NCBI GenBank assembly: GCA_024642665.1
Contig: JAHEAR010000021.1
Span: 453-64,452, forward strand
Length of the DNA stretch: 64,000 nucleotides
Direction of reading: 5' to 3'
Source: Bacteroidota bacterium
Lineage (GTDB): Bacteria; Bacteroidota; Bacteroidia; Chitinophagales; Saprospiraceae
The translations under genes and the position numbers were made by a program. The stretch's first letter is position 1. Every line of letters begins with the position of its first letter. The notes under the pieces were generated by a model. The model saw nothing but the letters and a program-made list of their open reading frames with translations. It had not been told where the DNA came from and did no database searches. Below are positions 7,323 to 63,798 of the stretch, piece by piece.

Positions 7323-7374
7323 TTTTAATATATTGAATAATCGGAATCATCACCATTAGAACTTAATATAGATC

Positions 7375-10300: not shown

Positions 10301-10572
10301 AATGTAGTTTCTGCGTTCAGCGTATACAGGAAGGTAAATTGCGAGCAAAAACAGAAGAGCGCTTATTGCGTGATGCTGATGTGAAGACAGCTTGCCAGAC
10401 GGCTTGTCCAACAGGGGCCATCACATTTGGAGATAGCAATAATGCAGAAGGGGAGTTAAGTAAAAAACTTGCTTCACCTTTGAACTACCTCGTACTGGAA
10501 GAAGTAAATACAAGGTCAGCAGTAAATTATAAGGCCAGAGTAATAAATAAAGCAGAAGGCGTTGATGCCTGA
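7375..10572 (+). CDS. actB: alternative complex III subunit ActB (Tat-exported molybdopterin-oxidoreductase-like plus 4Fe-4S ferredoxin domains)
   Basis: 1065 aa with a twin-arginine motif GRRDFLKYLG. The C-terminal part has Cys clusters CIGCGACTVAC, CQHCNNAPCENVCP and CVGTRYCANNCP. Confidence 0.9.
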   Translation: MKDQTSYKDIWIGSEDLGREEKFIELATQEMPDASIASTLAQGGSFASASTGRRDFLKYLGFSIGAATIAASCEIPVKKAIPFVTKPDDLVPGIANYYASTIAQGGDYCSVLVKTREGRPIKIEGNSLSGITGGGTSARAQAAVLSLYDTHRLKSPQIKNSEGQFEAASWQQIDDLVSSTISPTSKIAIVSHTMLSPTEKQVVKDFQTKYSNTTVAVYDASSSAAILRANQLMYGVSMIPGYHFDKAKVIVSVQADFLGTWISPIQFARQYAAGRKIEDPKDAKMSRHIQIESYMSLSGTNADNRIRIKPSEIGAVLARIYNKIASAKGGSTVSAPELSQSIAASVDKTANELLSASGQSLLVSGSNNVAEQAMVCAINHLLGNEGKTVDIEQYSLQRQGDEKSVSNLMTSMNSGQVDALIILGANPVFELPYGAAFAEAMGKVGLTISTAGAMNETAAACRAIAPSHHMLESWGDAEPVRGHISMIQPTIAPLFDTRQRETSLLKWIGDDNTLLITDQPYLEYLKKNWASHVSTQAAWNELLHDGVFTYTPESSGASYTDNLASVASKISKPGGGTEITFMETVAIGTGLDANNPWLQEMTDPVTRCAWGNYLALPVHFDGTRKFIAHENLSDGDLAEVTIGDQTLKVPVVKQFGQTPDSFALALGYGRTVTGRAGINVGVNVHPWLATDVDGLTQYYASGVTVSGKKGKEEYFSCVQYHHTMGVTAEDAKTKQTINADEAATVFMTYGLVDQGFQGSLVNRTIIRKSHLDHVEAFSHDLAEERHHHQELNKQQVYPGHDDVYARGHQWGMHVDLNACIGCGACTVACMAENNVPVVGKREVSRHHEMAWLRIDRYFYGDVDNPSAVYQPMMCQHCNNAPCENVCPVNATNHSAEGLNQMAYNRCVGTRYCANNCPYKVRRFNWLDYNAADLWPINEADLGLESDSDDIPYGADNLTRMVLNPDVTVRSRGVIEKCSFCVQRIQEGKLRAKTEERLLRDADVKTACQTACPTGAITFGDSNNAEGELSKKLASPLNYLVLEEVNTRSAVNYKARVINKAEGVDA

Positions 10573-10624
10573 TAGCCATAAAACGAATATAGACGACAAA
10601 CCTATTATCCTTAGACAATAAAAT

Positions 10625-12085
10625 ATGGGTGCAGCACCTACATCACCGATCAGAGAACCGTTAGTACAAGGACATAAGACCTACCACCAGATTACGGAAG
10701 ATCTTTGTTCTCCTACGGAGCGGGCGCCAGGCAAAGCATGGACATTAGCTTTTATTGTGGCTTTAATGGCCGCCACCTGGGGAATTGTTAGTATCATCAT
10801 CACCATCTGGGTCGGTATTGGCACATGGAGATTGAACAGAACCATTGGATGGGGATGGGACATTACTAATTTCGTATGGTGGATTGGTATTGGACATGCC
10901 GGTACGCTGATTTCAGCGATCCTGTTACTGTTCCGACAGAAATGGCGTACGGGTGTAAACCGGGCAGCGGAAGCGATGACCATTTTTGCCGTTATTTGTG
11001 CCGCCCTTTTTCCGGCTATTCACGTTGGACGTATTTGGGTGGTATTTTTCTTTTTTCCTTATCCGAATACAAGAGGACCGGTTTGGCCAAACTTTAATTC
11101 ACCACTTCTTTGGGACGTTTTTGCGATCTCTACATACTTTACGGTTTCTTTATTATTTTGGTATACGGGACTCGTTCCGGATTTTGCTACGGTACGAGAC
11201 AGAGCAAAAGGATTCAGGAAAAAAATGTACACCTTTCTTTCTTTTGGATGGACAGGATCAGCAAAACACTGGCAGCGCCATGAATCACTTTCATTGGTAT
11301 TAGCCGGACTTGCGACACCACTTGTACTTTCTGTTCATACGATAGTAAGTTTTGACTTTGCCACCTCTGTTATTCCTGGATGGCACACCACAATTTTCCC
11401 TCCTTACTTTGTGGCAGGAGCGATCTTTTCTGGATTTGCAATGGTGCAGACATTGATGGTAATCACCAGAAAGGTGCTTAACCTTCAAAACTATATTACC
11501 ATAGGACACATAGAATCCATGAACAAGGTGATTCTTGTGACAGGTACTATTGTTGGTGTAGCCTATTTGACGGAGTTATTTATTGCCTGGTATTCCGGGT
11601 ATGTTTATGAGCAGTTTGCATTTTTTAATCGTGCACTCGGTCCTTATTGGTGGTCCTATTTCGGTATGATGACTTGTAATGTGCTTTCTCCTCAGTTGTT
11701 TTGGTCAAAGAAGATCAGAAGAAATGTCACCATGACTTTCTTTATGTCCATATTCGTCAACATTGGAATGTGGTTTGAGCGATTTGTGATTATAGCCACA
11801 ACGCTAGCTCGCGATTATTTACCTTCCAGTTGGAGTTTCTACGTTCCATCTATTGTTGAGATCGGAATCTATGTGGGCACTATCGGAATCTTTTTTGTTT
11901 TCTACCTGGTCTTCGTTCGAGTAGCACCGGTCGTAGCGATCGCCGAGATTAAGCACATCCTGAAGAGTTCAGGAGATCAATATGTAATAACGAATGGTCA
12001 AACTACACTGCATCAAATAGAGCAGGGTGGAACCGCGCTTCAGGTAGCCGGTCATGGCGATTCACATGGAAATGCACATCATTAA
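10625..12085 (+). CDS. actC: alternative complex III subunit ActC (NrfD/PsrC-like quinol-binding membrane subunit)
   Basis: 486-aa polytopic membrane protein in the position after actB. It has a His-rich C-terminal tail (GHGDSHGNAHH). Confidence 0.88.
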   Translation: MGAAPTSPIREPLVQGHKTYHQITEDLCSPTERAPGKAWTLAFIVALMAATWGIVSIIITIWVGIGTWRLNRTIGWGWDITNFVWWIGIGHAGTLISAILLLFRQKWRTGVNRAAEAMTIFAVICAALFPAIHVGRIWVVFFFFPYPNTRGPVWPNFNSPLLWDVFAISTYFTVSLLFWYTGLVPDFATVRDRAKGFRKKMYTFLSFGWTGSAKHWQRHESLSLVLAGLATPLVLSVHTIVSFDFATSVIPGWHTTIFPPYFVAGAIFSGFAMVQTLMVITRKVLNLQNYITIGHIESMNKVILVTGTIVGVAYLTELFIAWYSGYVYEQFAFFNRALGPYWWSYFGMMTCNVLSPQLFWSKKIRRNVTMTFFMSIFVNIGMWFERFVIIATTLARDYLPSSWSFYVPSIVEIGIYVGTIGIFFVFYLVFVRVAPVVAIAEIKHILKSSGDQYVITNGQTTLHQIEQGGTALQVAGHGDSHGNAHH

Positions 12086-12118
12086 TTGATTATTTAAACA
12101 CTGGTGATCCAATAGATC

Positions 12119-12649
12119 ATGAAGCACGGAGAAAAAAATATATTATTCGGATTGTACGATGATGAAGAAGATCTGAAGAAGGCTGTCGTTCAGGCTAATC
12201 AGGATCATCTTGACATCATGGATGTGTTAACACCCTTTCCAGTTCATGGATTGGATCCACTATTAGGTCTTGCTGAATCAAGATTGCATATAGCGGGATT
12301 TGTATTTGGACTGACTGGGACCTTAACGGCGTTCTTAGGAATGACCTGGATATTTACAAGAGACTGGCCTAATATTTTTGGTGGGAAGCCCTACTGGCCA
12401 ATACTATCCTTTGTTCCGATTTCATTTGAGTTGACAGTACTATTTGCTTCCATCGGAATGGTGGTTACGTTTTACATTGTTAATGGGCAAGGACCAGGTA
12501 TTAAAAACCCGGTTATACACCCGCGCATTACAGATGATAAGTTCTGTATCGCATTTAATACTGATCATCTTGGGGATGCTCAGGTGAGTAAACTCAGAAA
12601 TTTTTTCCAACAAACCGGAGCCAGTCTGGTAGAAACGAAGACGATCTGA
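12119..12649 (+). CDS. actD: alternative complex III subunit ActD (DUF3341-type)
   Basis: 176 aa with two central TM helices. The call rests on conserved gene order between actC and actE. Confidence 0.78.
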   Translation: MKHGEKNILFGLYDDEEDLKKAVVQANQDHLDIMDVLTPFPVHGLDPLLGLAESRLHIAGFVFGLTGTLTAFLGMTWIFTRDWPNIFGGKPYWPILSFVPISFELTVLFASIGMVVTFYIVNGQGPGIKNPVIHPRITDDKFCIAFNTDHLGDAQVSKLRNFFQQTGASLVETKTI

Positions 12650-12651
12650 AC

Positions 12652-13536
12652 ATGAGGTATACGATACAATTTTCAATTCTTGCATGCGTAACATTGTTTA
12701 CCGCATGTTCACCCGCCGAGGGTGATCGTACAGGGCATGAATTTATGCCGGATATGGTACATACCACCGGGTATGAAGCAAACCTCTACGATTATTATTA
12801 CTACAACCGATGGGGTACTGAAGCAGAGTACAAACAATTTGTTTCGCCACGCCACAGTGTAAATGGAGCTGTTGCCAGAGGGCAAGTCTCCGTTGCTAAT
12901 GCAGGTGATGCAATGGCCAGAATGCAAGCGATGGAAGCTTTTGAAGGTATGGGCGATGGTAATTTTCCTATGGTTGCAAATGGAAGTGTGCCTTACTACT
13001 ATGGTAATACAGAAGAAGAGCGTACTAGAGCTTCTGAAGAAATTACAAAAAATCCTTTTCCAATTACTGAGAAAGGGCTGGCGCATGGAAAAGAGTTATA
13101 CAATATTTATTGCGGCATTTGCCATGGAGAAAAAGCAGATGGTCTGGGTTATCTGGTAAGAGAAGAGGACCCTGCGAAAGGCATTGTAGCCGGAGTATAT
13201 CCGGCAGCGCCTGCCAACTTTCTGCTAGATACATTTTTGCATTCTTCTGTTGGCCGTTTTTATCATGGTATCATGCATGGTAAAAATGTGATGGGTTCGT
13301 ATGCCGATAAATTGAGCTATGTGGAACGATGGGAAGTGATTCATTATATCCGATCGCTGCAAGCTAAAGCTAAAAAAGCAACGTACTCACCGGAAGAAAA
13401 TACATTAAATAATGAAGCGATCACCTGGGCTGCATTTGAAAAGATGATCCCTCAGAAAATGACTGCTGAAAATAATGGAGGAGAAGGACATGATCACGAG
13501 CCAGCAGAAGATCACCAACATAATAATGAACATTAA
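12652..13536 (+). CDS. actE: alternative complex III subunit ActE (monoheme cytochrome c lipoprotein)
   Basis: Single CGICH heme motif and a lipobox-like LFTAC. The C-terminal tail is His-rich (GHDHEPAEDHQHNNEH). Confidence 0.8.
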   Translation: MRYTIQFSILACVTLFTACSPAEGDRTGHEFMPDMVHTTGYEANLYDYYYYNRWGTEAEYKQFVSPRHSVNGAVARGQVSVANAGDAMARMQAMEAFEGMGDGNFPMVANGSVPYYYGNTEEERTRASEEITKNPFPITEKGLAHGKELYNIYCGICHGEKADGLGYLVREEDPAKGIVAGVYPAAPANFLLDTFLHSSVGRFYHGIMHGKNVMGSYADKLSYVERWEVIHYIRSLQAKAKKATYSPEENTLNNEAITWAAFEKMIPQKMTAENNGGEGHDHEPAEDHQHNNEH

Positions 13537-13539
13537 TCA

Positions 13540-14811
13540 TTGACCGAATCGACTACAACAGATATGAATCAGTTTATATTCGAAACAAGACAGAAAACAA
13601 TACTTGGCCTGATGATGCTGGTCGGTATATTTTCATTGGTCGCCACGTATATTGGGGATGATCATTTCCATACCCGATTTTGGTCTAACGTACTGCACAA
13701 TTCTGTATTTTTTACAGGGGTAGCACTGATGGCTTTATTTCTTCTGGCAGCTAAAATTACAGCGTGGTCAGGCTGGCATACCATTTTTAAAAGAGTTTGG
13801 GAAGCCTATTCCTTATTTCTGGTGGTAGGACTGGTCCTGATCATGATCATCGCTTTAGGTATTTGGGGTGGATGGCACCACTTATACCACTGGGCAGATA
13901 TTAAGTCCGTAGAGTCAGATGTAATCTTAACAGGGAAGAGTTCATTTTTGAATAAAAACTGGTACACCTTCGGCAGTTTATTATTTGTTGGGTTATGGGT
14001 GTTTTTTGCCATTCGTATTCGCCAGCTTTCTGTGGATGAGGATATAAATGGAGACAGCAATTTTACCCATGCCCGTAAAATGAGAGTACTTGGTGCAGCA
14101 GCACTTCCGGTGATTGGATTTACCAGTGCTGCGTTGATCTGGCAATGGGTGATGTCTGTGGATGCACACTGGTACAGTACACTTTTTGCCTGGTATGCTT
14201 CTGCGAGCATGATGGTGACGATGATAGCCCTGACGATTATTACGTTAATCATGCTAAAGGTGAGAGGATATTTCCCGCTAGTCAATATTGAGCACTTGCA
14301 TGACTTAGGGAAGTATATGTTTGCATTTAGTATTTTCTGGACGTATTTGTGGTTCTCTCAATATATGTTGATCTGGTATGCTAACATTCCGGAAGAAACG
14401 ATCTATTTCAATACCCGACTACATCAATATCCGGTATTGTTTTACCTCAATATTGGATTAAATTTCGTGCTGCCATTTTTAGTGTTATTGCGCAACGATA
14501 CAAAACGTAAATACGGAACACTCTTGTTTATTTCATGTGTGCTTGTGTTTAGTCACTGGCTGGATTTCTTCCTGATGTTGAAACCTGGAATTATCCACAC
14601 AGCCCATGAATTAGCTGCGGCTGCAGGAGAAGCGGGGCATCATACAGCAGGAGCCACCCCAGGATTTACATTGCCCGGATTTTTGGAAATAGGAACTTTC
14701 ATTGGATTCCTTGGACTTTTCTTCTTTGTTGTGTTCAACAGATTAGAAAAAGCAAGTCTTGTACCATCCAGAGATCCTTACTTAATGGAAAGTGTATCTC
14801 ATCATACCTAA
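13540..14811 (+). CDS. actF: alternative complex III subunit ActF (membrane subunit)
   Basis: 423-aa polytopic membrane protein and the last gene of the act block. It starts at TTG 13540, with an alternative ATG at 13564. Confidence 0.78.
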   Translation: MTESTTTDMNQFIFETRQKTILGLMMLVGIFSLVATYIGDDHFHTRFWSNVLHNSVFFTGVALMALFLLAAKITAWSGWHTIFKRVWEAYSLFLVVGLVLIMIIALGIWGGWHHLYHWADIKSVESDVILTGKSSFLNKNWYTFGSLLFVGLWVFFAIRIRQLSVDEDINGDSNFTHARKMRVLGAAALPVIGFTSAALIWQWVMSVDAHWYSTLFAWYASASMMVTMIALTIITLIMLKVRGYFPLVNIEHLHDLGKYMFAFSIFWTYLWFSQYMLIWYANIPEETIYFNTRLHQYPVLFYLNIGLNFVLPFLVLLRNDTKRKYGTLLFISCVLVFSHWLDFFLMLKPGIIHTAHELAAAAGEAGHHTAGATPGFTLPGFLEIGTFIGFLGLFFFVVFNRLEKASLVPSRDPYLMESVSHHT

Positions 14812-14867
14812 TCGTTTGGTGAGTAATCGATAAACTATTGAATGAAGTATATAAAGCCAGATAGCAA

Positions 14868-16388
14868 ATGACCGCTTTGATTATTGGATTAAGTATTCTG
14901 CTTTTAGTGATTGTAATTTTACAGATCAGTAAACTGACAGATCTATATGCCCGCATCCGTGGGGAAGAGGAGGTGGATGAACGCCTCAATCGCAGTCAGG
15001 GGAATGCGATGATATTATTTATGGTGGGTTTTCTGACGCTTTGTATTATCTCTGCCTATTGGATGAGAAACTATATGCTGGGTTATGGACCTCATAAAGC
15101 CGCTTCCGCTCACGGAAGTACTTTAGATAATCTCTTTAATACCACCTTGTTGTTTACAGGAATTGTCTTTGTGATTACGCACATTGCGCTTTTCTATTTT
15201 TCCTGGAGATACAAAAAGACTAAAACCTCTAAAGCGACTCACTGGTCACATAATAACACGCTTGAAATCGTATGGTCTGCTATTCCTGCAGTGGTCATGA
15301 CTTATCTGGTGATCAAAGGATTGCTGGCATGGAATGCGGTTATGGCAGATATTAAACCAGGAGAGGAGCATATTGAAATTGAGGCTACCGGTTACCAGTT
15401 TGCCTGGCATCTTCGTTATCCCGGGGCTGATGGTGTGATAGGAACAAGAAAGTACACATTGATTTCCGCCAGCAACCCTTTAGGGCAGGACTGGACAGAT
15501 CCGCATAATTATGACGACTTCCATCCGGATGAACTTTGGTTACCGGTCGGAAAAAAAGTACGCGTGCGAATTATCGCGAGAGATGTACTGCATAACTTTT
15601 TTCTGCCTCACTTTAGAGTGAAGATGGATGCCGTACCAGGTCTTCCTACGTATTTCGTATTCACACCTGAAAAAACTACGGAAGATTACCGAAATGAGTT
15701 GCGAAATTATCCTGAATATAATGTACCAAAGGATCCTTCTGATCCGGACAGCAAGATGTTGTGGGAAGAGTTCAATTACGAACTTGCCTGCGCTGAATTG
15801 TGTGGAAAGAGTCATTACAGTATGCGCAGAGTAGTCCGTATTGTTTCTCAGGAAGAATATGATGCATGGTTGGCTAAGCAACAATCATACTATCAAAGCA
15901 CAATCCGTAATACCGATGATGATCCCAACAAAGGGAAATTACTCGGATATGAAATGGATCGAAACAGAGAGGCCTTGAATATGGCAGTGGATAAAGCATT
16001 AGTTGATGCAGGTATTCCTATGACAGCGGAGGAAAAGGCAGCTTTAAGACTTATTCCTCTTGATTATGTTGGCTTTGAAACAGGATCAAGTGTCCTTACC
16101 TCTCAATCTACAAGTCAGATTGATGATTTGGTGGGGATATTAAACAGGTACCCTGATATATCCATTGAGATTGAAGGGCATACAGACAGCACCGGTGAGG
16201 TAGCGGCTAATCAAGTGCTATCACAGGACCGTGCCCAGGTGATTGAAAACTATCTCATTGAGAAAGGCATTGCCCAGGGCAGATTGAAGGCCATTGGTTA
16301 TGGGTCATCTCGACCTATAGATACGAATGATACTGACGAAGGTCGGGCGAAGAATAGAAGAACGCAATTTAGAATTATATCCAACTAA
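14868..16388 (+). CDS. coxB: cytochrome c oxidase subunit II fused to a C-terminal OmpA-like peptidoglycan-binding domain
   Basis: Two N-terminal TM helices and a cupredoxin CuA site (HNFF...CAELCGKSHYSM). The C-terminal ~110 aa match the OmpA_C pattern (GHTDSTG...N..LS..RA..V..YL...G....GYGSSRP...NRRTQF). Confidence 0.9.
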   Translation: MTALIIGLSILLLVIVILQISKLTDLYARIRGEEEVDERLNRSQGNAMILFMVGFLTLCIISAYWMRNYMLGYGPHKAASAHGSTLDNLFNTTLLFTGIVFVITHIALFYFSWRYKKTKTSKATHWSHNNTLEIVWSAIPAVVMTYLVIKGLLAWNAVMADIKPGEEHIEIEATGYQFAWHLRYPGADGVIGTRKYTLISASNPLGQDWTDPHNYDDFHPDELWLPVGKKVRVRIIARDVLHNFFLPHFRVKMDAVPGLPTYFVFTPEKTTEDYRNELRNYPEYNVPKDPSDPDSKMLWEEFNYELACAELCGKSHYSMRRVVRIVSQEEYDAWLAKQQSYYQSTIRNTDDDPNKGKLLGYEMDRNREALNMAVDKALVDAGIPMTAEEKAALRLIPLDYVGFETGSSVLTSQSTSQIDDLVGILNRYPDISIEIEGHTDSTGEVAANQVLSQDRAQVIENYLIEKGIAQGRLKAIGYGSSRPIDTNDTDEGRAKNRRTQFRIISN

Positions 16389-16400
16389 TATTAGACGATT

Positions 16401-18257
16401 ATGTCATCTTCACAGCAGCAGGAAACCGATGTTCTGATTAATGAACAAGGATATGATGATCATTTTCATGAGCATCATCATGGGGATAAGTATCAATCCA
16501 ACTTTATCACCCATTATATCTTTAGTCAGGACCATAAGATCATCGCGCGGCAGTTTCTCGTAACCGGTATTTTCTGGGCGATCATCGGTGCCAGCATGAG
16601 TATTATATTCAGGCTTCAACTGGGGTTTCCGGATGACAGTATGGCCTGGTTGAAGCCCATATTAGGGAAATGGATCACCATCAACGATGCAGGTCACGGA
16701 GCATTAAATCCGGAGTTTTATTATGCATTGGTCACCATGCACGGTACGATTATCGTATTCTTTGTATTGACCGCCGGATTGAGTGGAACATTTGCCAATT
16801 TATTGATTCCCTACCAACTTGGGGCGAGAGATATGGCATCGCCATTTCTTAACATGCTTTCCTATTGGTTTTTCTTTTTAGCAAGCGTGGTGATGTTTAT
16901 CTCCTTGTTTTTAAGTACAGGGCCTTTTGCCGGTGGATGGACAGCCTATCCTCCGCTCAGTGCATTACCGGAGGCAAGCTCCGGTTCAGGAGCCGGTATG
17001 ACATTGTGGCTGGTGAGTCTTACATTTTTCGTAGTCTCGGTGCTTTTGGGAGGTATAAATTATGTAACAACTGTTTTAAACCTGCGAACAAAAGGAATGA
17101 ATCTGTGGCGTATGCCATTGACAGTTTGGGCACTGCTTGTAACGGCAATTCTTGGTATTCTTTCTTTCCCGGTTTTGGTTTCCGGTTTCTTCCTATTGAT
17201 TTTCGACCGAGGGATGGGTACCAGTTTTTACCTGAGTGAGATATTTGTCAACGGTGCGGCCATGCAGAATGTGGGAGGTAGTCCAATTTTATATCAGCAT
17301 TTATTCTGGTTCCTCGGGCATCCGGAGGTATATATTATTATTCTTCCGGCGATGGGTCTGACCAGTGAGGTTTTATCTGTGCATGCGCGCAAACCAATTT
17401 TTGGTTACAAAGCGATGGTGTATTCCATTCTGGCGATTGGATTCTTATCCTTTATCGTTTGGGCCCACCACATGTTTATGTCAGGTGTCAATCCATTTAT
17501 ATCTAATTTCTTTGTTGTCTTTACTTTGATTATCGCTGTTCCTTCTGCGGTCAAAGTGTTCAACTGGATTTCTACCTTGTATAAAGGGAATATCAGATTT
17601 ACGTCTGCAATGCTTTTTGCCATCGGTTTTGTGTCGATGTTTATTTCCGGAGGTCTGACGGGTATATTCCTGGGTAACTCCGCTATTGATATTCAATTAC
17701 ACGATACGTACTTCGTCGTAGCGCACTTTCATATTGTAATGGGTATAGCTGCATTCTTTGGCATGTTTGCCGGAGTGTATCATTGGTTCCCGAGGATGTA
17801 TGGTCGTTTTATGAATGAGACCTTAGGACGAATTCATTTTTGGATGACCATTGTAGGCGCGTATGCTATCTTCTGGCCAATGCACTATATGGGTATGGCG
17901 GGTGTACCCAGACGATATTATCGTTTTGATACTTTTGATGCCTTCGGACATTTTGGGGGTTTAAATGAGTTTATCACCATCGCAGCGATCATTACTTTTT
18001 CAGCGCAACTATTATTTGTGTTCAATTTCTTCTATAGCATTTGGTATGGCAAGAAGATGACTACCAAAAATCCATGGGGTGCAACGACGTTGGAATGGAC
18101 TACACCGATTAAGGCAGGTCATGGTAACTGGCCGGGTAAATTACCAACTGTGCACAGATGGGCATATGATTACAGTAAAGAAGGTGCGGATAAAGATTTT
18201 ATCCAGCAACATTTACCATTAACGGATAAGGAAAAAGCTGAGGAAGCCAATCATTAA
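16401..18257 (+). CDS. ctaD: cytochrome c oxidase subunit I
   Basis: 618-aa heme-copper oxidase subunit I with motifs WFLGHPEVYIIILP, WAHHMF and VAHFHIV. Confidence 0.97.
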   Translation: MSSSQQQETDVLINEQGYDDHFHEHHHGDKYQSNFITHYIFSQDHKIIARQFLVTGIFWAIIGASMSIIFRLQLGFPDDSMAWLKPILGKWITINDAGHGALNPEFYYALVTMHGTIIVFFVLTAGLSGTFANLLIPYQLGARDMASPFLNMLSYWFFFLASVVMFISLFLSTGPFAGGWTAYPPLSALPEASSGSGAGMTLWLVSLTFFVVSVLLGGINYVTTVLNLRTKGMNLWRMPLTVWALLVTAILGILSFPVLVSGFFLLIFDRGMGTSFYLSEIFVNGAAMQNVGGSPILYQHLFWFLGHPEVYIIILPAMGLTSEVLSVHARKPIFGYKAMVYSILAIGFLSFIVWAHHMFMSGVNPFISNFFVVFTLIIAVPSAVKVFNWISTLYKGNIRFTSAMLFAIGFVSMFISGGLTGIFLGNSAIDIQLHDTYFVVAHFHIVMGIAAFFGMFAGVYHWFPRMYGRFMNETLGRIHFWMTIVGAYAIFWPMHYMGMAGVPRRYYRFDTFDAFGHFGGLNEFITIAAIITFSAQLLFVFNFFYSIWYGKKMTTKNPWGATTLEWTTPIKAGHGNWPGKLPTVHRWAYDYSKEGADKDFIQQHLPLTDKEKAEEANH

Positions 18258-52748: not shown

Positions 52749-53222
52749 ATGAAATCACATTTGATCGATATGTTTCTTTTTAACAGAGAAGCCAATAGTA
52801 AGATGGTTTCCTCCTTTGTAGATATTTCCGGCAATGGTGAAATACTGAAGCACTTGAGTCACTTAGCCAATTGTCAATACAAATGGTTGGGAAGAATCAG
52901 AACTTTTCCGGAAGCAGAAAGTGTCAGTTGGTGGGAACCGGTCTATGAGGCAGATGAATTGTTACAGCATATTTCACAGAGTACACAATTTTGGTTAGAC
53001 TATTTAAATGGCTTGAACGAAGAGGATTTAGAGAACAGAATCAACTTTGCCCGAGGAGCTTCCGGATCGGCCGAAGTCTCTATAAAGGATATTGCCCTTC
53101 AGTTGATCTTTCACTCCTTTCATCATCGGGCACAGATACAAATGATGATCAGAGAAAAAGGGATACCTCCGGAGGGCATCGATTACATCCGATCCAGGAT
53201 GATAAAAAAAGGGGAGAGCTGA
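52749..53222 (+). CDS. DinB-family protein
   Basis: 157 aa with a four-helix pattern and His motifs (HLANCQ, FHSFHHRAQI). Confidence 0.72.
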   Translation: MKSHLIDMFLFNREANSKMVSSFVDISGNGEILKHLSHLANCQYKWLGRIRTFPEAESVSWWEPVYEADELLQHISQSTQFWLDYLNGLNEEDLENRINFARGASGSAEVSIKDIALQLIFHSFHHRAQIQMMIREKGIPPEGIDYIRSRMIKKGES

Positions 53223-53241
53223 TACAGCTTTCCCCTTTTTT
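53204..53241. terminator. bidirectional hairpin terminator between the convergent DinB-like and giant T9SS genes
   Basis: 10-bp stem ggggagagct/agctttcccc (one G-T pair) with a 5-nt loop, flanked by an A7 run and a T6 run. The DinB stop codon lies at the stem-loop junction. Confidence 0.7.
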
Positions 53242-53263: not shown

Positions 53264-56200
53264 TTAATTGCCCGATTTAACCAGTTTAACCGGCCACATG
53301 TTATCACCGTTTTTCAACAGGACTATATAAAGTCCTGCCGGTTCTGTGCTTAATTCATACTGCTCATCAGCGGTTAGCGGTAATTGATAAATGACGTTCC
53401 TGCCACTGGCATTGAACATAGACAGCACCAGATCTTTTTTGGCATAAATACCGGGCATAGACCCATTATTAAAGATGGTAAAAAACTCATCATAATCCAC
53501 CGGAAGTGTTGAGACAAAACAATCAACCATTCCTGGAATAATAACAGATGAGCAATTCGGATTGGCATCATCAAAAACCAGAAATTCATAATCCGTATCA
53601 TCTGCTGGAAATGGTCCCAATTCCAAAGGGAGATCATCATAACTGAAGTTTCCGTAATTGTTGCCATTACCGAGGACATTAAAACCATCAAAGCCTACAT
53701 TGGTAAAATCAAAATCAAGAATGAAAAAGAAATTGCCGTCATCGTCACAAGGCGTCATGGTGTATTCAAGATTATAAATACTGCATCCTCCGGCACCACA
53801 AGTTGGTCCATCAAACGAATAACTACTGCAGCATTCCATGCCATCACTTTCACAGATCGTTATCGTATAATCACCACTATCATTAGTAGGGTAATTATTG
53901 ATTTCCACTGGCATTTGATTTAGAGGATAGAAGCCCAGATAGTCATCCCCTGAATAGATATCCACACCACCTCCCGGTAGGTTTTCGTAATTGTAATCTA
54001 CCAGCACCACAAAAGTGGAATCTGAATTACAATCAAATACACTAACGGCAATATCAAATATGGCACAATCACCTCCGTTACAATTTGGATTAACAATCGT
54101 ATAAGAAGCACAGCATGCTGAATTGTTTTGAGCGCAAACAGTGATTACGGTTTCTTCTATATCAAAGACAGGGAAATTTTCAATGCGTATAAAATTTGGC
54201 GCATTAAAATAAGTGCCCAGTAAAATTCCATTCGCGAAAATATCCACTGAATCCGTCGGGAGACTATTATCATCAAACACAATATCTACTAGGAAAGTAG
54301 AATCAGAGTTGCAATCACCGGTCTCCGCAAACAGATTATAGATTTCACAATCAAATCCCTGTCCGCAATCGGGTGTTTCTAAAACATATTGATCACAACA
54401 ATCCGGACCTTCTAAAGCACAAACGGTAATTGTCGTATGACTAAAGTTTGAAGCAGGGAAATTAGGAATCGTAAATCCGGCCGGATTATGCACAAAATGA
54501 GCTGAGTATCCATTGTCCGAACTAACCACTACGGAATCCGAAGGAAGGTTGTTGGATAAGTAATGGATAAAGACCGAAAAGGTAGAATCGTCATTACAAA
54601 CGCCAAAATCTGCTACCAGATCAAACAAGTGACACATACCACCACCGGCACAATGAGGCGTTTCAAATTCAATAGCAGCACAACAATCCGGTGCTTCAAC
54701 AGCACAAACAGAAAGGACCGTGTGGTTGGTTTCAAATTCAGGGAAATTGCTGATGGTTAATCCTTCACTGACTGCCAGATATTGCCCGATCAAATTACCA
54801 TTACCATAAACAAAAACAGAGTCATTCGGCAGATTCTCAAAATTGAAGTCGATGTGAATAGAATAGGTTGTGTCAGACGTACAGTCTCCAACGAATATTT
54901 CAAGATCCCAGATGCTGCAATTTCCGGAGCCGGGGCAGTCAGGCGTATCAAATTCAACTACATCACAACAATCAGGATTGCCAACTGCACAAACTGAAAG
55001 GGTTGTATTGTTGGTTTCAAAGGTTGGAAAATTGACGATAGTCAGTCCTTCATTGATTGCAAGATATTGCCCGATCAAATTGCCATTGGCATACACCAGG
55101 ACAGAATCTTCAGGGAGATTGCTAAAATTAAAGTCAATATGAATGGAGTAGGTTGAGTCTGACGTACAGTCGCCAACGAAATATTCAAGATCCCAGATAT
55201 TGCACTGACCAAAAGTGGAACAATCAGGGGTAGCATATTCTACAACAGCACAGCAATCAGGATTGCCAACCGCACAAACTGAAAGGGTTGTATTGTCGGT
55301 TTCAAAAGTTGGGAAATTTTCAATGGTCAATCCTTCATTGACGGCAAGATATTGTCCGATCAAATTGCCATTAGCATACACCAGGACAGAATCTTCAGGA
55401 AGATTGATAAAATTAAAGTCAATATGAATGGAGTAGGTTGAGTCTGACGTACAGTCACCAACGAAATATTCAAGATCCCAGATATTGCACTGACCAAAAG
55501 TAGAGCAATCAGGGGTAGCATATTCTACAGCAGCACAGCAATCAGGATTGCCAACCGCACAAACTGAAAGGGTTGTATTGTCGGTTTCAAAAGTTGGGAA
55601 ATTTTCAATGGTCAATCCTTCATTAACAGCAAGATATTGTCCGATCAAATTGCCATTAGCATACACCAGGACAGAATCTTCAGGAAGATTAATAAAATTA
55701 AAGTCAATCTGAATGGAGTAGGTTGAGTCTGACGTGCAGTCCCCAACAAAATATTCAAGATCCCAGATATTGCATTGTCCAAAGGTGGAACAATCAGGGG
55801 CTTCAAACGTAAGCGTATCACAACACTCGGCATCACCCAGAATACAAACAACCAGTATTGTGGAATCCGTTTCAAAAACCGGAAATTCTTCAATCCGATT
55901 AAAATTGGGTTGAATCTCGTACACCCCGACTAGCTCACCATTGCCATAAACAGCAATCGAGTCACTATCTGTATTAATCGTCTCAAATACAATATCAAGT
56001 ATATAAGTAGAATCAGAGTTGCATTCTCCTGTTTCAGCAAACAAGTCATACAGGTTGCAAACCGGAGATTCGCAATTCATCAATTCAAAAAGGACTTCAT
56101 CACAGCAGCTTCCGAGGTCATTCGCACAAACAGAGAGTACTGCTGTGCCATCGCCTTCAGGAATATCTAAAATGATTGGGATTTCATCTACGTTATAAAA

Positions 56201-58057
56201 TCCCACAAATACGCCGTCCAGAAAAACATCGACGGATTCACCCGGTAGATTTTCGTAAAAATATTCGAGGGCCACTTCGAAAGTACTATCGGTCGTACAA
56301 CCGATTACTTCGACATTGACATCATAAATGCTGCAAGCACATTCAGGGGAATCAAAGATTAAGGTAGCACAACAATTGTTATTATCATTTTCGCAAACAG
56401 TGATCGTATCTGTGCCTGTTCCGTTGGACGGAAATTCGTTGATCATCAAAGGAAGATCGGTATAGTCATAAAAGCCAAAATTTTCTCCATTTACATACAA
56501 ATCAAACCCAACGCCTGAAACACCCTGATAATCAAAATCAATCGTAGCAGCAAACGTATTATTTCCGGTGCATTCTCCGGTGATAACGGAAAGATTGGAT
56601 AGCTCACAAATGGTATCACAATCAATAAAGCCTAATTCAATACTTTCAAAACATAATTGGTTGACTAAATCGGTCACTACAAATTCAAAATACTGGCTAC
56701 CATCACCAACGAAGGGACCAACTTGAACCGGTAGGTCTTCATAAGCAAAGGAACCATAGTTTTCTCCGTTGCCGGTGATTTCAAATCCTTCATTCGATTG
56801 ATTCTGATAATCAAAATTTATTTGAATAAAAATCTCATCATCATCATTACATGGAAGTGGAAAAGCTTCCAGATTATAAATCAAACAACCTGCACACAGT
56901 AGTGCTTCAAATGGAGTGGTCGAACAACATTCAAGATACTCGTTGTCGCAGACAGTGACATAATCAATAAATTCACCTGATCCCTCAAATTCAGGAAGTG
57001 TTATCGGTAAGTCGTCATACATATAACTTCCATAATAACCTGTTTCAGAAAAAACTGCAAACCCAAGATCTCCTTCTCCTTCGATGTCCAGTCCAATCAA
57101 TAATGAATAAGCTTCATTGCCATTACATTCCAATGCCAAAGCTTCCATGGATCGCACATCACAAGGTGGAGGACAATGGTATATCCCAAATACTTCCGTC
57201 GTTTGACAGTCACCATCCTCAATATGAAATTCCCATTCGATGTCTGTCCCACCATTTAATGGTCCAACGGTAATTGGTAAATCGATGTAGGCAAAATTGC
57301 CATAATTGAGACCATTTCCGGTCATGTGAAAACTATCTGATGGAGGATTATCGTAACCAAAATTAATATGCATCAGAAAGTTGGCACCATTGCAATCAGG
57401 ATCAAAAGTTACGCTGTACATCTCACAGTTGTCCGGATTGCAATCAATCGCATCTAACACAAACGTTTCACAACAGGAAGATTCAAGATGATCACATACA
57501 GTTAAAATGATTGGTGCTGCTCCGTTTACTTCAAAGAATGGAATTGTAATGGGCAGGCTTGAGTATAAATAAGTACTAATCAAATCACCCTCCTCATCGC
57601 GCAAGTCAAAAGTTAATCCTGCCGGATTCTCATAATCAAAGTCAAACACTACAATTGCGCTATTGTCACTGACACAAGCCACAAACTCAAGATCGAAGTT
57701 TGAGATAGAACAAATCGGTCCACAATCAGCGGCAACCATGGTGGTGAATTGCTGACACATGCCATCTTCTTTATCCCAGGCAATAAATTCGTATTCTGAT
57801 TCTGCATCACCAAGCAGGTTTCCAACAGAAACCGGGAGGTCAGCATAAGCAAATTGACCATAAACGACTCCATTTCCGGCAAGCATAAAACTATCGCTGG
57901 CGGGGTTAATGACCTCAAGATCAACTGAAGCAGAAAAATAATTTCCATCACAGGATTCCGCTATAGCGGTGACAGAAGTAATTTCACAATCCTGGGCCCA
58001 TATGGAAGTAGGTAAATAATTAACTATCAAGCAAATGGAAAGTAGAATCTTATACAT
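53264..58057 (-). CDS. giant secreted modular Cys-rich repeat protein with T9SS C-terminal sorting domain
   Basis: 1597 aa. The signal peptide is MYKILLSICLIVNYLPTSIWAQ. It is followed by 16 tandem Cys-framed modules of 88-95 aa. The last ~80 aa resemble a Por/T9SS CTD (LSMFNASGRNV...AGLYIVLLKNGDNMWPVKLVKS). Confidence 0.9.
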   Translation of the reverse strand: MYKILLSICLIVNYLPTSIWAQDCEITSVTAIAESCDGNYFSASVDLEVINPASDSFMLAGNGVVYGQFAYADLPVSVGNLLGDAESEYEFIAWDKEDGMCQQFTTMVAADCGPICSISNFDLEFVACVSDNSAIVVFDFDYENPAGLTFDLRDEEGDLISTYLYSSLPITIPFFEVNGAAPIILTVCDHLESSCCETFVLDAIDCNPDNCEMYSVTFDPDCNGANFLMHINFGYDNPPSDSFHMTGNGLNYGNFAYIDLPITVGPLNGGTDIEWEFHIEDGDCQTTEVFGIYHCPPPCDVRSMEALALECNGNEAYSLLIGLDIEGEGDLGFAVFSETGYYGSYMYDDLPITLPEFEGSGEFIDYVTVCDNEYLECCSTTPFEALLCAGCLIYNLEAFPLPCNDDDEIFIQINFDYQNQSNEGFEITGNGENYGSFAYEDLPVQVGPFVGDGSQYFEFVVTDLVNQLCFESIELGFIDCDTICELSNLSVITGECTGNNTFAATIDFDYQGVSGVGFDLYVNGENFGFYDYTDLPLMINEFPSNGTGTDTITVCENDNNNCCATLIFDSPECACSIYDVNVEVIGCTTDSTFEVALEYFYENLPGESVDVFLDGVFVGFYNVDEIPIILDIPEGDGTAVLSVCANDLGSCCDEVLFELMNCESPVCNLYDLFAETGECNSDSTYILDIVFETINTDSDSIAVYGNGELVGVYEIQPNFNRIEEFPVFETDSTILVVCILGDAECCDTLTFEAPDCSTFGQCNIWDLEYFVGDCTSDSTYSIQIDFNFINLPEDSVLVYANGNLIGQYLAVNEGLTIENFPTFETDNTTLSVCAVGNPDCCAAVEYATPDCSTFGQCNIWDLEYFVGDCTSDSTYSIHIDFNFINLPEDSVLVYANGNLIGQYLAVNEGLTIENFPTFETDNTTLSVCAVGNPDCCAVVEYATPDCSTFGQCNIWDLEYFVGDCTSDSTYSIHIDFNFSNLPEDSVLVYANGNLIGQYLAINEGLTIVNFPTFETNNTTLSVCAVGNPDCCDVVEFDTPDCPGSGNCSIWDLEIFVGDCTSDTTYSIHIDFNFENLPNDSVFVYGNGNLIGQYLAVSEGLTISNFPEFETNHTVLSVCAVEAPDCCAAIEFETPHCAGGGMCHLFDLVADFGVCNDDSTFSVFIHYLSNNLPSDSVVVSSDNGYSAHFVHNPAGFTIPNFPASNFSHTTITVCALEGPDCCDQYVLETPDCGQGFDCEIYNLFAETGDCNSDSTFLVDIVFDDNSLPTDSVDIFANGILLGTYFNAPNFIRIENFPVFDIEETVITVCAQNNSACCASYTIVNPNCNGGDCAIFDIAVSVFDCNSDSTFVVLVDYNYENLPGGGVDIYSGDDYLGFYPLNQMPVEINNYPTNDSGDYTITICESDGMECCSSYSFDGPTCGAGGCSIYNLEYTMTPCDDDGNFFFILDFDFTNVGFDGFNVLGNGNNYGNFSYDDLPLELGPFPADDTDYEFLVFDDANPNCSSVIIPGMVDCFVSTLPVDYDEFFTIFNNGSMPGIYAKKDLVLSMFNASGRNVIYQLPLTADEQYELSTEPAGLYIVLLKNGDNMWPVKLVKSGN
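54920..55774 (-). repeat. three near-identical in-frame 285-bp tandem repeats (modules 9-11 of the giant protein)
   Basis: The landmark tgcactgaccaaaag recurs at 55201 and 55486, and related landmarks occur at 54916 and 55771, giving an exact period of 285 bp. The copies at 55201-55485 and 55486-55770 differ at about 10 positions by hand alignment. Confidence 0.9.
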
Positions 58058-58178
58058 AGAAAAGTCTTTTTTTGTAGTTACACAAAGCTATACAAAAGTG
58101 TTCAATTAAGCCCACTAGTTTCAAGATACCAATATCTTTACGAGCGTTGCACCTTTGATTGCTTAAATTAGTGTGGAT

Positions 58179-61380: not shown

Positions 61381-63798
61381 TTACTTTACAATAATCACCG
61401 GAACAGAACGCTGTCCATCAACAGTTTCAACCTGTAGCAGATAATTACCTGCCGCCATTTGGCTGACCGTGATTGGTTCTATATGGTTGGTGATGGTATT
61501 GTTTAGTGCATTGTAGTAAACTACTCTTCCCAGATTGTCAATCAATCGCAACTTCACATCGCTGTAAGGCTTTGAGAATTCTAATTTAACCTGAACTACA
61601 TCAGTAGCCGGGTTAGGGAATGCAGAGATTGTGTTGTCCAATGGAAGTGGATCCACTGTATTCGTAGTTCTTGTAACTACACGAACTAATGGAACGATAT
61701 CCTGACCGAAGAAAATACGACTGTCGTTGACATCAAGCTCTCTTACTTCATAGTCGATATTGGCAATGTTTCCATCAGGTGAGAATCCAAGTACCGCTGT
61801 GTAGACCAAATGATCAGTCAAGCCATAAGCTACTGCTGTATCAGAAGCAAGAACAACAGCACCGAAATCTCTGGCTTCACTGGCGAGCAAGAAAAACTGT
61901 GGATCAGAAGCTGTAGCAGCCTGATATTCAACAATGGCAATATAGCCAAAACCACCTTTCATTACGACATCATCACCAGGATTGTCAAAGTTTTCAAGTG
62001 TGCTTTCAAGAATAGCATTATCCCCTTCAGCACCACTAAATGTATAATCTGCAAAACCGATAAACTTACGTTCGTTACTTTGCGCAATCTGATCACCATT
62101 ATTGTCAGTCCACTGCAGAAGATAAATCTGAACAGTTTTATCAACCATGTCAGTTGGGTTATTCACACCCCATACAATTCTATCTACAACAGCATCAGCT
62201 TGGGGAAAGAAGTAATTACCAAAAGCATAAGAAAGTGGAGCACCGGCATCATAAATGCCATTAGCAACCGCTACTGATCTGGTGAATCCATCTTCCATTC
62301 CGAATGTATTTCCTCCAACAGTGTAGCTGGTTGAAATAACGTTGTCAGCTGGATCGAAATCTGTTTCATCCTGTGTTAATGTGAATACAGCTGTATAGTT
62401 ACCATCAACACCGGATGGCAATTCGATAAGGGTTGGGTTTAATCGGTTTTCAATAGTTGTATCCGGATCAATGGTGCCATAATCTAAATTTTCGTTATAG
62501 ACTTCTTCCATTGTATCTGAATTGTAAACGGTATGATTCAGTACAACATTTGTCTGAGGAGCGGCTCCAATATTTCTTACATCAGCCAGGGCACCAAATG
62601 GATATATCTGATCATTTGGAATGGTTCCCCATGGTGCTAAAGAATAAAAGTTTTCCTGAACTCTGATGTTGTTGGCTTCAGTTTCTACGATTTTTACGTC
62701 GTCAATACCCCATAGATAATAGTTGGCATTGTAGACGAAACGAATCTGGAGTAAGTCATGACCTGCAGCACCAGCCATAAAGAATCGCTGTATATCGGCA
62801 GGAAAAAATGCACTATTGATTACAAATTCAGTATTGACCTGAATATCGGTCCAGTCGGTCCAGTCATCAGCTCCATCTTTCGTACGGAAGGAGATGAAAT
62901 AAGTACTTTGATACTGGCGAAGTGCTTGTGTCCAGGTTAAACTAAGTCCTACTGCTGTCCATTCAGACGTATTGATTTCAGGTGAAATAAGGATATGTTG
63001 TGCAGTAGCTGGGCAAGGACCATTACCGGCATTGCCATCAATACCACCGTTATCACCATAATCACTATCAACACCAACGGATCCATCACAATAAGTAGCC
63101 GATTGAACACCATAAGTTGGTTGACTGTACAAACCCTGATTAATCAGGTTATCAGCACGGTAAGTCCATCCTGCATTTACATTAGAGTCAGCAACAGCAC
63201 ATGTACCTTCTGTGGTCCATCCGTTTATTTCAAGTCCTCCGGCAAAAGTTTCCCAGAAAAGAGGTGCTTCAGTAGAGGTGTCCTCAAAGACTCCACAACT
63301 TAATGTACCTTCTGTAGCAGGGGTGTTACCGGTAGACCATACACGGACAACATATTCGTTATCAGTAAGCAGGCATCCACTGGATAGGACAATTTTGTTG
63401 TCCTCAGGTTGATCAGAGGAGAAACATGCAATCGGTGTCTCACCTGCACCACAACTCGCATAAATAGCCATTCCAATAGCCGGAACATCCGTTGGCGTAA
63501 TGGCATTGTTAAAATAAATTCTAACAATTAATCCATTTGCAGGGAGTACTGATCCGGTGGTAAACTTAAACCAGATGTCATCGGTATACCATGATCCTGA
63601 ACAAACATTAGTAGGCACTGTAGATGCGGTAGCCCCGCGTGAATCACCAGCTACGGTTACTGCATTCATTTCGCTGTCTCCGATGGAGACTTCAAACGCA
63701 CCGGAACAATCATCGTTTAGCGGTTGCGCCCAGGCGGTGATACTCATTAAAATAAGTCCAATAAATAGACTTGAAAAACGTAAAGTTACTTTCATCAT
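61381..63798 (-). CDS. secreted protein with T9SS C-terminal sorting domain (function unknown)
   Basis: 805 aa with signal peptide ...ITAWAQ. The N-terminal module starts PLNDDCSGAF. The C-terminal ~80 aa are a typical T9SS CTD (AFPNPATDVVQV...LIDNLGRVV...AGNYLLQVETVDGQRSVPVIIVK). Confidence 0.85.
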   Translation of the reverse strand: MMKVTLRFSSLFIGLILMSITAWAQPLNDDCSGAFEVSIGDSEMNAVTVAGDSRGATASTVPTNVCSGSWYTDDIWFKFTTGSVLPANGLIVRIYFNNAITPTDVPAIGMAIYASCGAGETPIACFSSDQPEDNKIVLSSGCLLTDNEYVVRVWSTGNTPATEGTLSCGVFEDTSTEAPLFWETFAGGLEINGWTTEGTCAVADSNVNAGWTYRADNLINQGLYSQPTYGVQSATYCDGSVGVDSDYGDNGGIDGNAGNGPCPATAQHILISPEINTSEWTAVGLSLTWTQALRQYQSTYFISFRTKDGADDWTDWTDIQVNTEFVINSAFFPADIQRFFMAGAAGHDLLQIRFVYNANYYLWGIDDVKIVETEANNIRVQENFYSLAPWGTIPNDQIYPFGALADVRNIGAAPQTNVVLNHTVYNSDTMEEVYNENLDYGTIDPDTTIENRLNPTLIELPSGVDGNYTAVFTLTQDETDFDPADNVISTSYTVGGNTFGMEDGFTRSVAVANGIYDAGAPLSYAFGNYFFPQADAVVDRIVWGVNNPTDMVDKTVQIYLLQWTDNNGDQIAQSNERKFIGFADYTFSGAEGDNAILESTLENFDNPGDDVVMKGGFGYIAIVEYQAATASDPQFFLLASEARDFGAVVLASDTAVAYGLTDHLVYTAVLGFSPDGNIANIDYEVRELDVNDSRIFFGQDIVPLVRVVTRTTNTVDPLPLDNTISAFPNPATDVVQVKLEFSKPYSDVKLRLIDNLGRVVYYNALNNTITNHIEPITVSQMAAGNYLLQVETVDGQRSVPVIIVK

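Follow-up and report, generated by a model that had tools for sequence, protein, structure and literature searches.

What kind of structure does a bacterium build from a protein that consists almost entirely of sixteen copies of one cysteine-framed domain, that has shed nearly all of its lysine and arginine, and that ends in a tail resembling a sorting domain of the type IX secretion system (T9SS)? The question is raised by a gene on the minus strand of a 64,000-nucleotide stretch of contig JAHEAR010000021.1 (assembly GCA_024642665.1, positions 453 to 64,452 of the forward strand), from a Bacteroidota bacterium placed in the Saprospiraceae; this whole stretch is here termed the window. We propose, with a probability that we put at roughly 0.6, that the gene product is exported by the T9SS and exposed on the cell surface as a polyanionic rod of about 60 nm, made of stapled immunoglobulin-like (Ig-like) modules, with an alternating A/B tip and a probably glycosylated B stalk of variable length. 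The figure of 60 nm follows from our estimate of a rise of about 4 nm per Ig-like module. Judged from sequence and structure prediction, the most likely role of such a rod would be that of a surface spacer or adhesin fibril of floc-dwelling Saprospiraceae.

The gene is a single ATG-started open reading frame (ORF) whose product is identical to a protein in the public collection (P0001). From its N-terminus, the product has a signal peptide, the 16 modules in tandem and a tail that resembles the type A sorting domain, arranged as follows.

53264..58057 (-): whole coding sequence, 1597 aa, with the stop codon at 53264..53266
57995..58057 (-): Sec signal peptide, aa 1-21, MYKILLSICLIVNYLPTSIWA followed by QD, with Gln at +1, read from the sequence by eye
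56336..57988 (-): modules 1-6, alternating A-B-A-B-A-B, aa 24-574, orthologous position by position throughout the clade; proposed as the fibril's distal end
53786..56335 (-): modules 7-15, nine six-cysteine B modules, aa 575-1424, with 18 of the 20 candidate glycosylation sequons; proposed stalk
54635..55774 (-): modules 9-12, a 285-bp unit recently duplicated in tandem; orthologues differ in copy number here
53519..53785 (-): module 16, type A, aa 1425-1513, adjoining the sorting domain and the final module in nearly all orthologues
53267..53518 (-): divergent T9SS type A sorting domain, 84 aa, aa 1514-1597, GLYIVLLK...WPVKLVKSGN, below threshold for TIGR04183 and PF18962

Cutting the protein at each first cysteine yields modules that start at aa 24, 116, 211, 299, 391, 484, 575, 667, 762, 857, 952, 1047, 1142, 1237, 1331 and 1425, the last of them ending at aa 1513. 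This bears out a preliminary description of the locus, made from the sequence alone, which had counted sixteen contiguous, cysteine-first modules of 88-95 aa between aa 24 and 1513 and had given their order as ABABABBBBBBBBBBA, with four cysteines in modules 1, 3, 5 and 16 and six in modules 2, 4 and 6-15. Its total of 88 cysteines holds for the modules, and the whole protein has 89, C9 lying in the signal peptide. The motifs that it listed are idealized yet real. The spacing C-x11-C occurs in 15 of the 16 modules, module 3 having C-x10-C instead; VC-x6-CC-x9-C is found in all 12 B modules, except that module 15 has IC in place of VC; D[ST]T[FY] follows the second cysteine in nine B modules (7-15) and not in the remaining three, and (N/E)FP is present in eight of the 12 and absent from the other four. 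Of the type A modules, 3 and 5 match the motif GNGxNYGxFxYxDLPxxVGP exactly, and module 1 (VYG, VGN) and module 16 (LGP) depart from it. Four cysteines are invariant in an end-to-end alignment of all window modules, a profile built from the 16 modules matches every one of them, and only 1-5 residues separate the last cysteine of one module from the first cysteine of the next. A six-frame search of the window found no further copy of the module outside the gene.

The cysteines appear to act in pairs. An even number per module had been taken to suggest intramodule disulfides, and patterns of gain and loss across 1434 full-length family modules fit this suggestion. Tallied at profile columns 1, 13, 72, 79, 80 and 90, all six cysteines are present in 727 of the modules (CCCCCC), and the pattern without columns 72 and 80 (CC-C-C) accounts for 656; only four modules have one of C72 and C80 without its partner. 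Since C72 and C80 are gained and lost together, they would form a B-specific, dispensable disulfide, and in the module-6 orthologues of six proteins both have been lost from a sequence that is still B-like. Four of the 1434 modules retain only C13 and C90 (-C---C), and in the predicted structure the first and last strands begin at C1 and C79, respectively, and have C13 and C90 at their far ends. Together, these observations suggest C1-C79 and C13-C90 pairing, which is the most likely arrangement of the two disulfides common to every module; counting C72-C80 in the B modules, we infer 44 disulfides overall.

Compared as profiles, A and B are homologous subtypes of a single domain: hhalign pairs the two family-wide profiles over 93 columns with a probability of 99.5% and E 4e-23, and subtype B amounts to A with two additional cysteines at columns 72 and 80. 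The whole protein, 15 window modules and 127 diverse family modules were scanned against Pfam-A (2025), and searches were also made against NCBIfam 20.0 and the sequence profiles of the PDB. The preliminary description had regarded the domain as undescribed, and so it appears to be in these sequence libraries, none of which matches the modules individually. It had also named repeat domains that the modules do not resemble, and profiles for PKD, Big/Ig, cadherin, FN3, SprB, HYR and Calx-beta are indeed not listed at E up to 1 for any of the Pfam-A queries. In NCBIfam, only a sorting-domain model matches the whole protein. The best matches of the 15- and 127-sequence module profiles among PDB sequence profiles were at E 0.49 (Flpp3/DUF3568) and about 2 (Lef3, STIV turret), and were dismissed as chance. 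A literature search combining Saprospiraceae, T9SS and cysteine-rich returned no account of the protein or the domain.

The lack of resemblance to known repeat domains stands for sequence and falls for fold. AlphaFold2 modeled module 14, a B module, from the alignment of 127 diverse family modules with seven strands, at a predicted local distance difference test score (pLDDT) of 94.3 and a predicted template modeling score (pTM) of 0.83; modules 5-6, an A-B pair supported by 76 paired sequences, were modeled as two seven-strand sandwiches (pLDDT 96.0, pTM 0.74). The module is hence confidently predicted to be a seven-stranded Ig/FN3-like beta-sandwich of about 90 aa. Foldseek searches of the PDB with the single module gave no match at E 1e-3 or better, the top entries being Ig-like domains of glycoside hydrolase family 2 (GH2) glucuronidases, FN3-like modules of CbhA, monobodies and SleM, at query-based TM-scores (TMq) of 0.48-0.65. 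The module pair gave eight matches at E 1e-3 or better, all of them tandem Ig/FN3-like proteins, and its list includes phage Hoc, CbhA, an FN3 array, IL-7R-alpha, SiiE, tenascin and, at rank 46, the neck of GhpA. The modeling of a two-module fragment that the preliminary description had proposed thus returned confident sandwiches and generic tandem-array matches only. Because nothing beyond generic Ig/FN3-like arrays is retrieved, the fold counts as known and only the sequence family as new; the general kind of protein, a signal peptide followed by tandem Ig-like repeats and a T9SS tail, is familiar as well. The linkers of 1-5 residues and the pTM of 0.74 for the pair suggest a fairly stiff rod.

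The family is large and taxonomically coherent. A word-indexed search returned 145 relatives, and an exhaustive profile search of 1.84 billion cluster representatives returned 951 at E 1e-3 or better, with 548 at E 1e-30 or better; among the matches listed (150 of the 951), each has 5-36 matched stretches. The taxonomic spread, which the preliminary description had wished to see defined, is narrow: the named sources are Saprospiraceae, Lewinellaceae, Saprospirales, Phaeodactylibacter, Chitinophagales and unclassified Bacteroidota, plus one metagenome-assembled genome (MAG) labeled Polaribacter, and all but one of them are Saprospiraceae or their relatives. A genome scan with the single protein found three loci, two in Saprospiraceae MAGs and one in a Bacteroidia MAG. 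In 120 relatives we counted 1527 modules, and those matched over more than 80 profile positions comprise 800 with six cysteines and 627 with four. With two subtypes, a confident model and about 951 cluster representatives, the module is a clean and well-bounded candidate for a new domain-family entry.

Forty-eight of the relatives (P0002-P0049, 42-71% identity) are orthologues that share the signal peptide, the order ABABAB(B)nA and the tail, and have 13-17 modules where the sequence is complete; one of them, P0003 (71%), has exactly 16. Two of the contigs that carry orthologues are named Candidatus Opimibacter skivensis. The window modules were mapped by best match onto those of 45 orthologues, and the mapping was inspected in eight. 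Each of modules 1-7 and 15-16 finds a one-to-one counterpart in all eight, as do modules 8, 13 and 14 in most of them; modules 9-12, by contrast, have only one or two counterparts between them in the orthologue and are lineage-specific duplicates. They are the only close copies among the 16 modules and coincide with a tandem array detected by TRF at 54667..55800 (period 285, 4.0 copies, 87% matches); modules 9 and 10 are 98% identical in protein and 96.5% in DNA, differing at 10 of 285 nt, with a longest common exact run of 94 nt. Median identity to the orthologues is 57-63% for modules 1-7 and 16 and 50-54% for modules 8-15. Both the alternating A/B end and the last, type A module are constant across orthologues, and change in copy number is confined to the central B run, which therefore fits a stalk that sets length. 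The orthologues also offer a natural series in which to study how stalk length evolves through module duplication.

More distant members (P0050-P0120) combine the Cys-framed modules with other parts, so that within this clade the module behaves as a stalk or spacer that different T9SS cargo can reuse. Among these parts are an N-terminal domain of about 190 aa (aa 1-192 in P0050, for example), with a weak Reeler match and the NCBI name 'choice-of-anchor V', and an unassigned insert of about 170 aa. In some, such as P0060 (aa 1241-1573), a dockerin-like segment (PF00404, 25 bits) and about 150 unassigned residues precede a canonical PF18962 tail; the unassigned region before the tail is a candidate cohesin-like domain, by eye only. 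One distant member, P0065, lies on a 6.19-Mb contig, where it is flanked by a protein that exceeds 3821 aa, carries SprB repeats and ends in a CHU_C tail (locus L005, 11895..15784 (-)) and by a T9SS cargo with a lysyl-oxidase domain (L005, 1053..3098).

The composition of the protein is conserved, too, and raises the question of why an extracellular protein would shed almost all of its lysine and arginine. The whole protein has 259 Asp and Glu residues against 12 Lys and Arg. In the module region of 1490 aa, there are 144 Asp and 105 Glu (249 together, about 17%), one Lys and four Arg, with Asn at 8.2%, in agreement with the strongly acidic, Asn-rich character noted from the first reading. The isoelectric point (pI) is about 4 or lower, the Biopython value of 4.05 being apparently the lower limit of that algorithm. 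Lys and Arg make up 0.3% of the module region against 4.3-12.5% of nine other ORFs in the window; in 49 clade proteins the module-region median is likewise 0.3% (range 0-1.4%), and in distant members it is 1.0%. To judge from this comparison, Lys/Arg avoidance is a conserved and selected property. As its cause we would consider resistance to Lys/Arg-specific proteases, repulsion from anionic polymers of the envelope or matrix, or the binding of cations.

O-glycosylation in the Bacteroidota takes place at the sequon D-(S/T)-(A/I/L/V/M/T) (PMC8550257), and the window protein, predicted to be exported, carries this sequon as substrates of the general O-glycosylation system do. It has 20 copies, where 2000 shuffles of matched composition contain 7.0 +/- 2.5 and at most 18, and 16 of the 20 fall at module offsets 16 (D-S-T) and 33 (D-S-V) of B modules 7-15, positions that are loop-to-strand junctions in the model. 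Across the family, 51% and 33% of B modules have a sequon at these two columns, and no A-module column reaches 8%. We suggest that the B run is probably a glycosylated stalk.

Export through the T9SS is likely, as far as the two ends of the protein can be read. The N-terminus (MYKILLSICLIVNYLPTSIWA) has, by eye, the basic start, hydrophobic core and small-x-small cleavage site of a Sec signal peptide; cleavage is more likely after A21, between IWA and QD, than after residue 22, as first described, and the first module begins at aa 23-25 in the orthologues. At the C-terminus, PF18962 is the best Pfam match for nine of ten clade tails, scoring 13-26.6 bits in eight of nine orthologue tails, and distant family members have canonical PF18962 domains at 44-51 bits. 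A T9SS has been reported in all five Saprospiraceae wastewater genera studied, Ca. Opimibacter included (PMC9304909). The window itself encodes another cargo with a clear PF18962 domain, described below.

Taken together, these observations can be accommodated by a surface fibril. Export by Sec and then by the T9SS would place the protein outside the outer membrane, probably still attached to the cell, and its disulfides would form in the periplasm, prior to export; the locus would hence provide an opportunity to study how the T9SS copes with a cargo predicted to have 44 disulfides. Modules 1-6, which alternate between A and B, would be the distal, functional end, and gain or loss of central B modules (9-12 here) between lineages would set the length of the fibril. 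Being acidic and poor in Lys and Arg, the rod would stay extended and be repelled from anionic lipopolysaccharide (LPS) and extracellular polymeric substances (EPS); it would present nearly no sites to Lys/Arg-specific proteases, and its composition would permit low-affinity binding of divalent cations. The protein combines a tandem stalk array with a probable surface anchor, as fibrillar adhesins do (16 modules, a tail like a C-terminal sorting domain, variable copy number), and the functions first guessed for it, those of an adhesin, a matrix protein or a cation binder, are reasonable.

Several points weigh against this proposal. Profile scans recognize no adhesive or enzymatic head domain, and there is no non-repeat stretch within aa 24-1513; with no recognized head domain, the word adhesin would be used of a protein without an identified binding part. 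In fluorescence in situ hybridization (FISH), cells of Ca. Opimibacter are mostly single within flocs and only seldom joined to other bacteria (PMC9304909), so that specific cell-cell adhesion is not indicated. The disulfide map is drawn from co-variation and strand topology. The shuffle test overstates the enrichment in sequons because the modules are homologous copies, and D-S-T and D-S-V might be conserved for structural reasons and not as sites of glycosylation. Finally, the tail of the window protein reaches 22.4 bits (E 9e-5) against TIGR04183, whose cutoff is 23, and 17 bits against PF18962, whose cutoff is 27. The sorting domain of the preliminary description is thereby upheld in that the best match is to the type A domain, canonical in distant members, and weakened in that the window tail falls under both curated cutoffs.

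It is also possible, if rather doubtful, that the protein is released or only loosely bound, and serves as a polyanionic matrix component that binds Ca2+ or other divalent metals and bridges floc polymers or buffers cations, with no specific ligand. The excess of 249 Asp and Glu over five Lys and Arg in the module region, kept across the clade, is what such a function would call for, and conserved Asp and Asn residues lie in loops predicted to face adjacent modules. The Ca-binding adhesin SiiE is among the two-module Foldseek matches, and the hosts dwell deep in activated-sludge flocs (PMC9304909). In contrast, the Pfam and NCBIfam scans gave no match to a cadherin, Calx-beta, RTX or EF-hand motif, the SiiE match is generic (E ~1e-3, TM-score ~0.33), and the position-specific identity of 12 of the 16 modules, together with the fixed A/B order, exceeds the needs of a bulk polyanion. 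A cation-binding matrix role is, in any case, compatible with a surface fibril.

A bolder version of the surface fibril, which we consider speculative and unlikely to hold as a whole, would make it a previously unrecognized surface structure of the Saprospiraceae and related bacteria: a glycosylated, disulfide-stapled fibril built of the Cys-framed module, encoded in the core genome and free of Lys and Arg, whose conserved A/B tip has a specific ligand or a role in oligomerization, and in which the loss of Lys and Arg protects against proteases. If so, the A/B tip might serve, for instance, in Ca2+-dependent anchoring to the floc matrix or in lateral assembly into a multi-chain appendage resembling a grappling hook, and the near-absence of Lys and Arg would guard against Lys/Arg-specific proteases, whether the cell's own or those of its neighbors.

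An improbable alternative is that the protein is the protomer of a homo-oligomeric appendage, in which parallel chains form a stiff, hollow stem, as they do in the heptameric GhpA of Aureispira. GhpA is a T9SS substrate from the same family with Ig-like repeats, disulfides and O-glycans (bioRxiv 10.1101/2024.01.29.577165), and its neck (PDB 9flp) does occur in the Foldseek list, at rank 46 with E 7.5e-3. However, the PDB profile searches returned no GhpA chain at E up to 10, the modules begin at aa 24 and leave no room for an N-terminal hook region, and the flanking genes at three loci are housekeeping genes, none of them PorP/PorE-like. The protein is also much shorter, at 1597 aa against 5898 aa. 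It thus shows none of the features that would define a GhpA-type system, namely homology, the hook, and adjacent PorP/PorE genes corresponding to ghpB/C.

We regard as very improbable a mobile gliding adhesin like SprB, moved over the cell surface by the gliding machinery. The protein is, to be sure, a large T9SS cargo made of repeats; adhesins of that description drive gliding in its phylum, and some Saprospiraceae are gliding bacteria (PMC9304909). Against this, there is no match to the SprB repeat (PF13573) and no sprF/PorP-like gene nearby; the tail resembles type A (TIGR04183) and not the type B/CHU_C domain of SprB, CHU_C being a weak secondary match in three clade tails, and a genuine SprB-repeat giant exists as a separate protein in a related genome (L005).

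It is scarcely credible, although automated annotation would suggest it, that the modules are galactose-binding-like domains of the BetaGal_ABD2 type, which would bind carbohydrates or act as glycosidase accessories. The whole-protein Pfam-A scan lists PF13364 (BetaGal_ABD2) and nothing else, at 33.3 bits against a cutoff of 23, and the family is precomputed for the window protein and for several relatives, including P0005, P0016, P0028 and P0043. This score is summed over the repeats: no single stretch passes, 38 of 112 profile positions are covered, and the best single module has E 0.009 before correction for 15 queries. Among 127 diverse B modules, five have weak PF13364 matches and six weak STIV_turret_2nd matches, with nothing recurrent. 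The predicted fold is a 94-aa, seven-strand Ig/FN3-like sandwich and not a jelly-roll of about 112 aa, and the protein has no glycosidase catalytic domain; membership of PF13364 was rejected on these grounds. The label is likely an artefact of repeat summing and a likely source of misannotation in automated pipelines, where a new domain entry would supplant it.

We give least credence to an assembly artefact from collapsed or expanded repeats: the close DNA identity of modules 9 and 10 and the apparently metagenomic origin of the window could invite it, but only four of the 16 modules are close copies, no exact run between modules 9 and 10 exceeds 94 nt, and the 48 orthologues come from independent assemblies with the same architecture, P0003 also with 16 modules, several on contigs of 743, 505, 463 and 301 kb, and some in Ca. 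Opimibacter skivensis, a species whose description is based on the set of long-read MAGs by Singleton et al. 2021 (PMC9304909). The ORF is sound in outline, and the exact number of 285-bp units in the window contig is provisional.

The surroundings of the gene indicate a stable component of the genome. It is solitary, divergent from genes for a zinc-dependent oxidoreductase of the alcohol dehydrogenase type (zinc-ADH) and a phosphoesterase, and convergent with genes for a DinB-family protein and a carboxyltransferase. Two orthologues, P0010 (56% identity) and P0029 (48% identity), have the same neighbors on either side, and the gene is therefore a vertically inherited core gene and not part of an island. 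No PorP/PorE-like, SprF-like, glycosyltransferase or protease gene adjoins it. The protein would be a conserved surface component, encoded by a syntenic gene of the core genome, in Saprospiraceae that are abundant in wastewater. Two candidate expression signals were found at its ends.

53205..53241 (no strand assigned): hairpin with a 17-bp stem between an A-run and a T-run, between the convergent genes; likely bidirectional terminator
58083..58090 (-): -7-like promoter motif TAGCTTTG (TAnnTTTG), a motif match only, in the divergent intergenic region of 115 bp, 25 nt upstream of the ATG

The second of these corresponds to the Bacteroidota -7 consensus TAnnTTTG; a scan for sigma-70-type promoters gave 12 sites where 15.7 were expected, and nothing above chance. 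The DinB-family gene (52749..53222 (+)) is missing at L001 and L006, two loci that are syntenic in other respects, which points to a small lineage-specific insertion or loss. Three kilobases from the gene for the module protein, the window encodes a second T9SS cargo of 805 aa (61381..63798 (-)), with PF18962 at 36.5 bits and a weak GBD_T9SS_assoc match, and a similar gene is found at the same place in L001 and L006. Further away lies a respiratory cluster (5913..18257 (+)), in which genes for a multihaem cytochrome c (5913..7322), a molybdopterin/4Fe-4S protein (7375..10572) and an NrfD-like membrane protein (10625..12085) form a trio resembling Alternative Complex III and are followed by COX2 and COX1 (16401..18257). 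Its COX2 gene (14868..16388 (+)) is a 506-aa ORF in which COX2_TM and COX2 (aa 76-260) are followed, at the C-terminus, by a domain of the OmpA family (aa 403-497, 81 bits); it is unusual for a respiratory subunit to be fused to a domain of the peptidoglycan-binding type.

The proposed surface fibril has partial counterparts in several known systems. The best Foldseek match of the A-B pair is phage Hoc (PDB 3shs, E 2.5e-4), a surface decoration of Ig-like modules in tandem; however, TMq is 0.33 and identity 10%, and Hoc, a protein of the phage capsid, lacks both a cysteine framework and any T9SS context. The FN3-like (X1) modules of Clostridium thermocellum CbhA (PDB 3pe9, 3pdd) share the seven-strand sandwich of about 90 aa and are among the best Foldseek matches, weak as these are (E 3e-2 for the single module and 3e-4 for the pair, TM-score ~0.4-0.5, identity 12-16%); FN3 domains have no four- or six-cysteine framework, and the window modules have no Pfam FN3 match. 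Salmonella SiiE, built of BIg domains (PDB 2yn3) and an example of a fibrillar adhesin whose stalk consists of Ig-like repeats, is an acidic rod of beta-sandwiches of about 90 aa with variable copy number that matches the module pair at E ~1e-3. Yet SiiE is a substrate of a type I secretion system (T1SS), has Ca2+ sites at its domain junctions and lacks the cysteine framework, and the window protein, unlike adhesins of this type, has no Pfam Big/BIg match and no recognized adhesive tip domain.

Within the Bacteroidota, TfsA and TfsB of Tannerella forsythia share with the window protein the Ig-like content and the D-(S/T)-(A/I/L/V/M/T) sequon, and would share with it a type A C-terminal domain and a cell-surface location. 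They form a two-dimensional surface layer (S-layer) and are not built from a Cys-framed module, and glycosylation of the window protein is only predicted. A parallel in host and general plan is GhpA of Aureispira sp. CCB-QB, also from the Saprospiraceae, which has a Sec signal peptide, a T9SS sorting domain and a long Ig-like array. Its stem is rigid and extracellular, with disulfides and with densities interpreted as O-glycans (bioRxiv 10.1101/2024.01.29.577165). GhpA differs in its 52 repeats, its N-terminal hook of about 1400 aa, its heptameric state and the PorP/PorE homologues encoded beside it; its repeats have no detectable sequence similarity to the window modules, the structural match is generic (TMq 0.38), and its illustrated disulfide joins nearby domains, whereas those proposed here lie within modules. 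Current understanding is not overturned by a further tandem Ig-like T9SS cargo, a kind of protein already familiar and of little surprise to the specialist.

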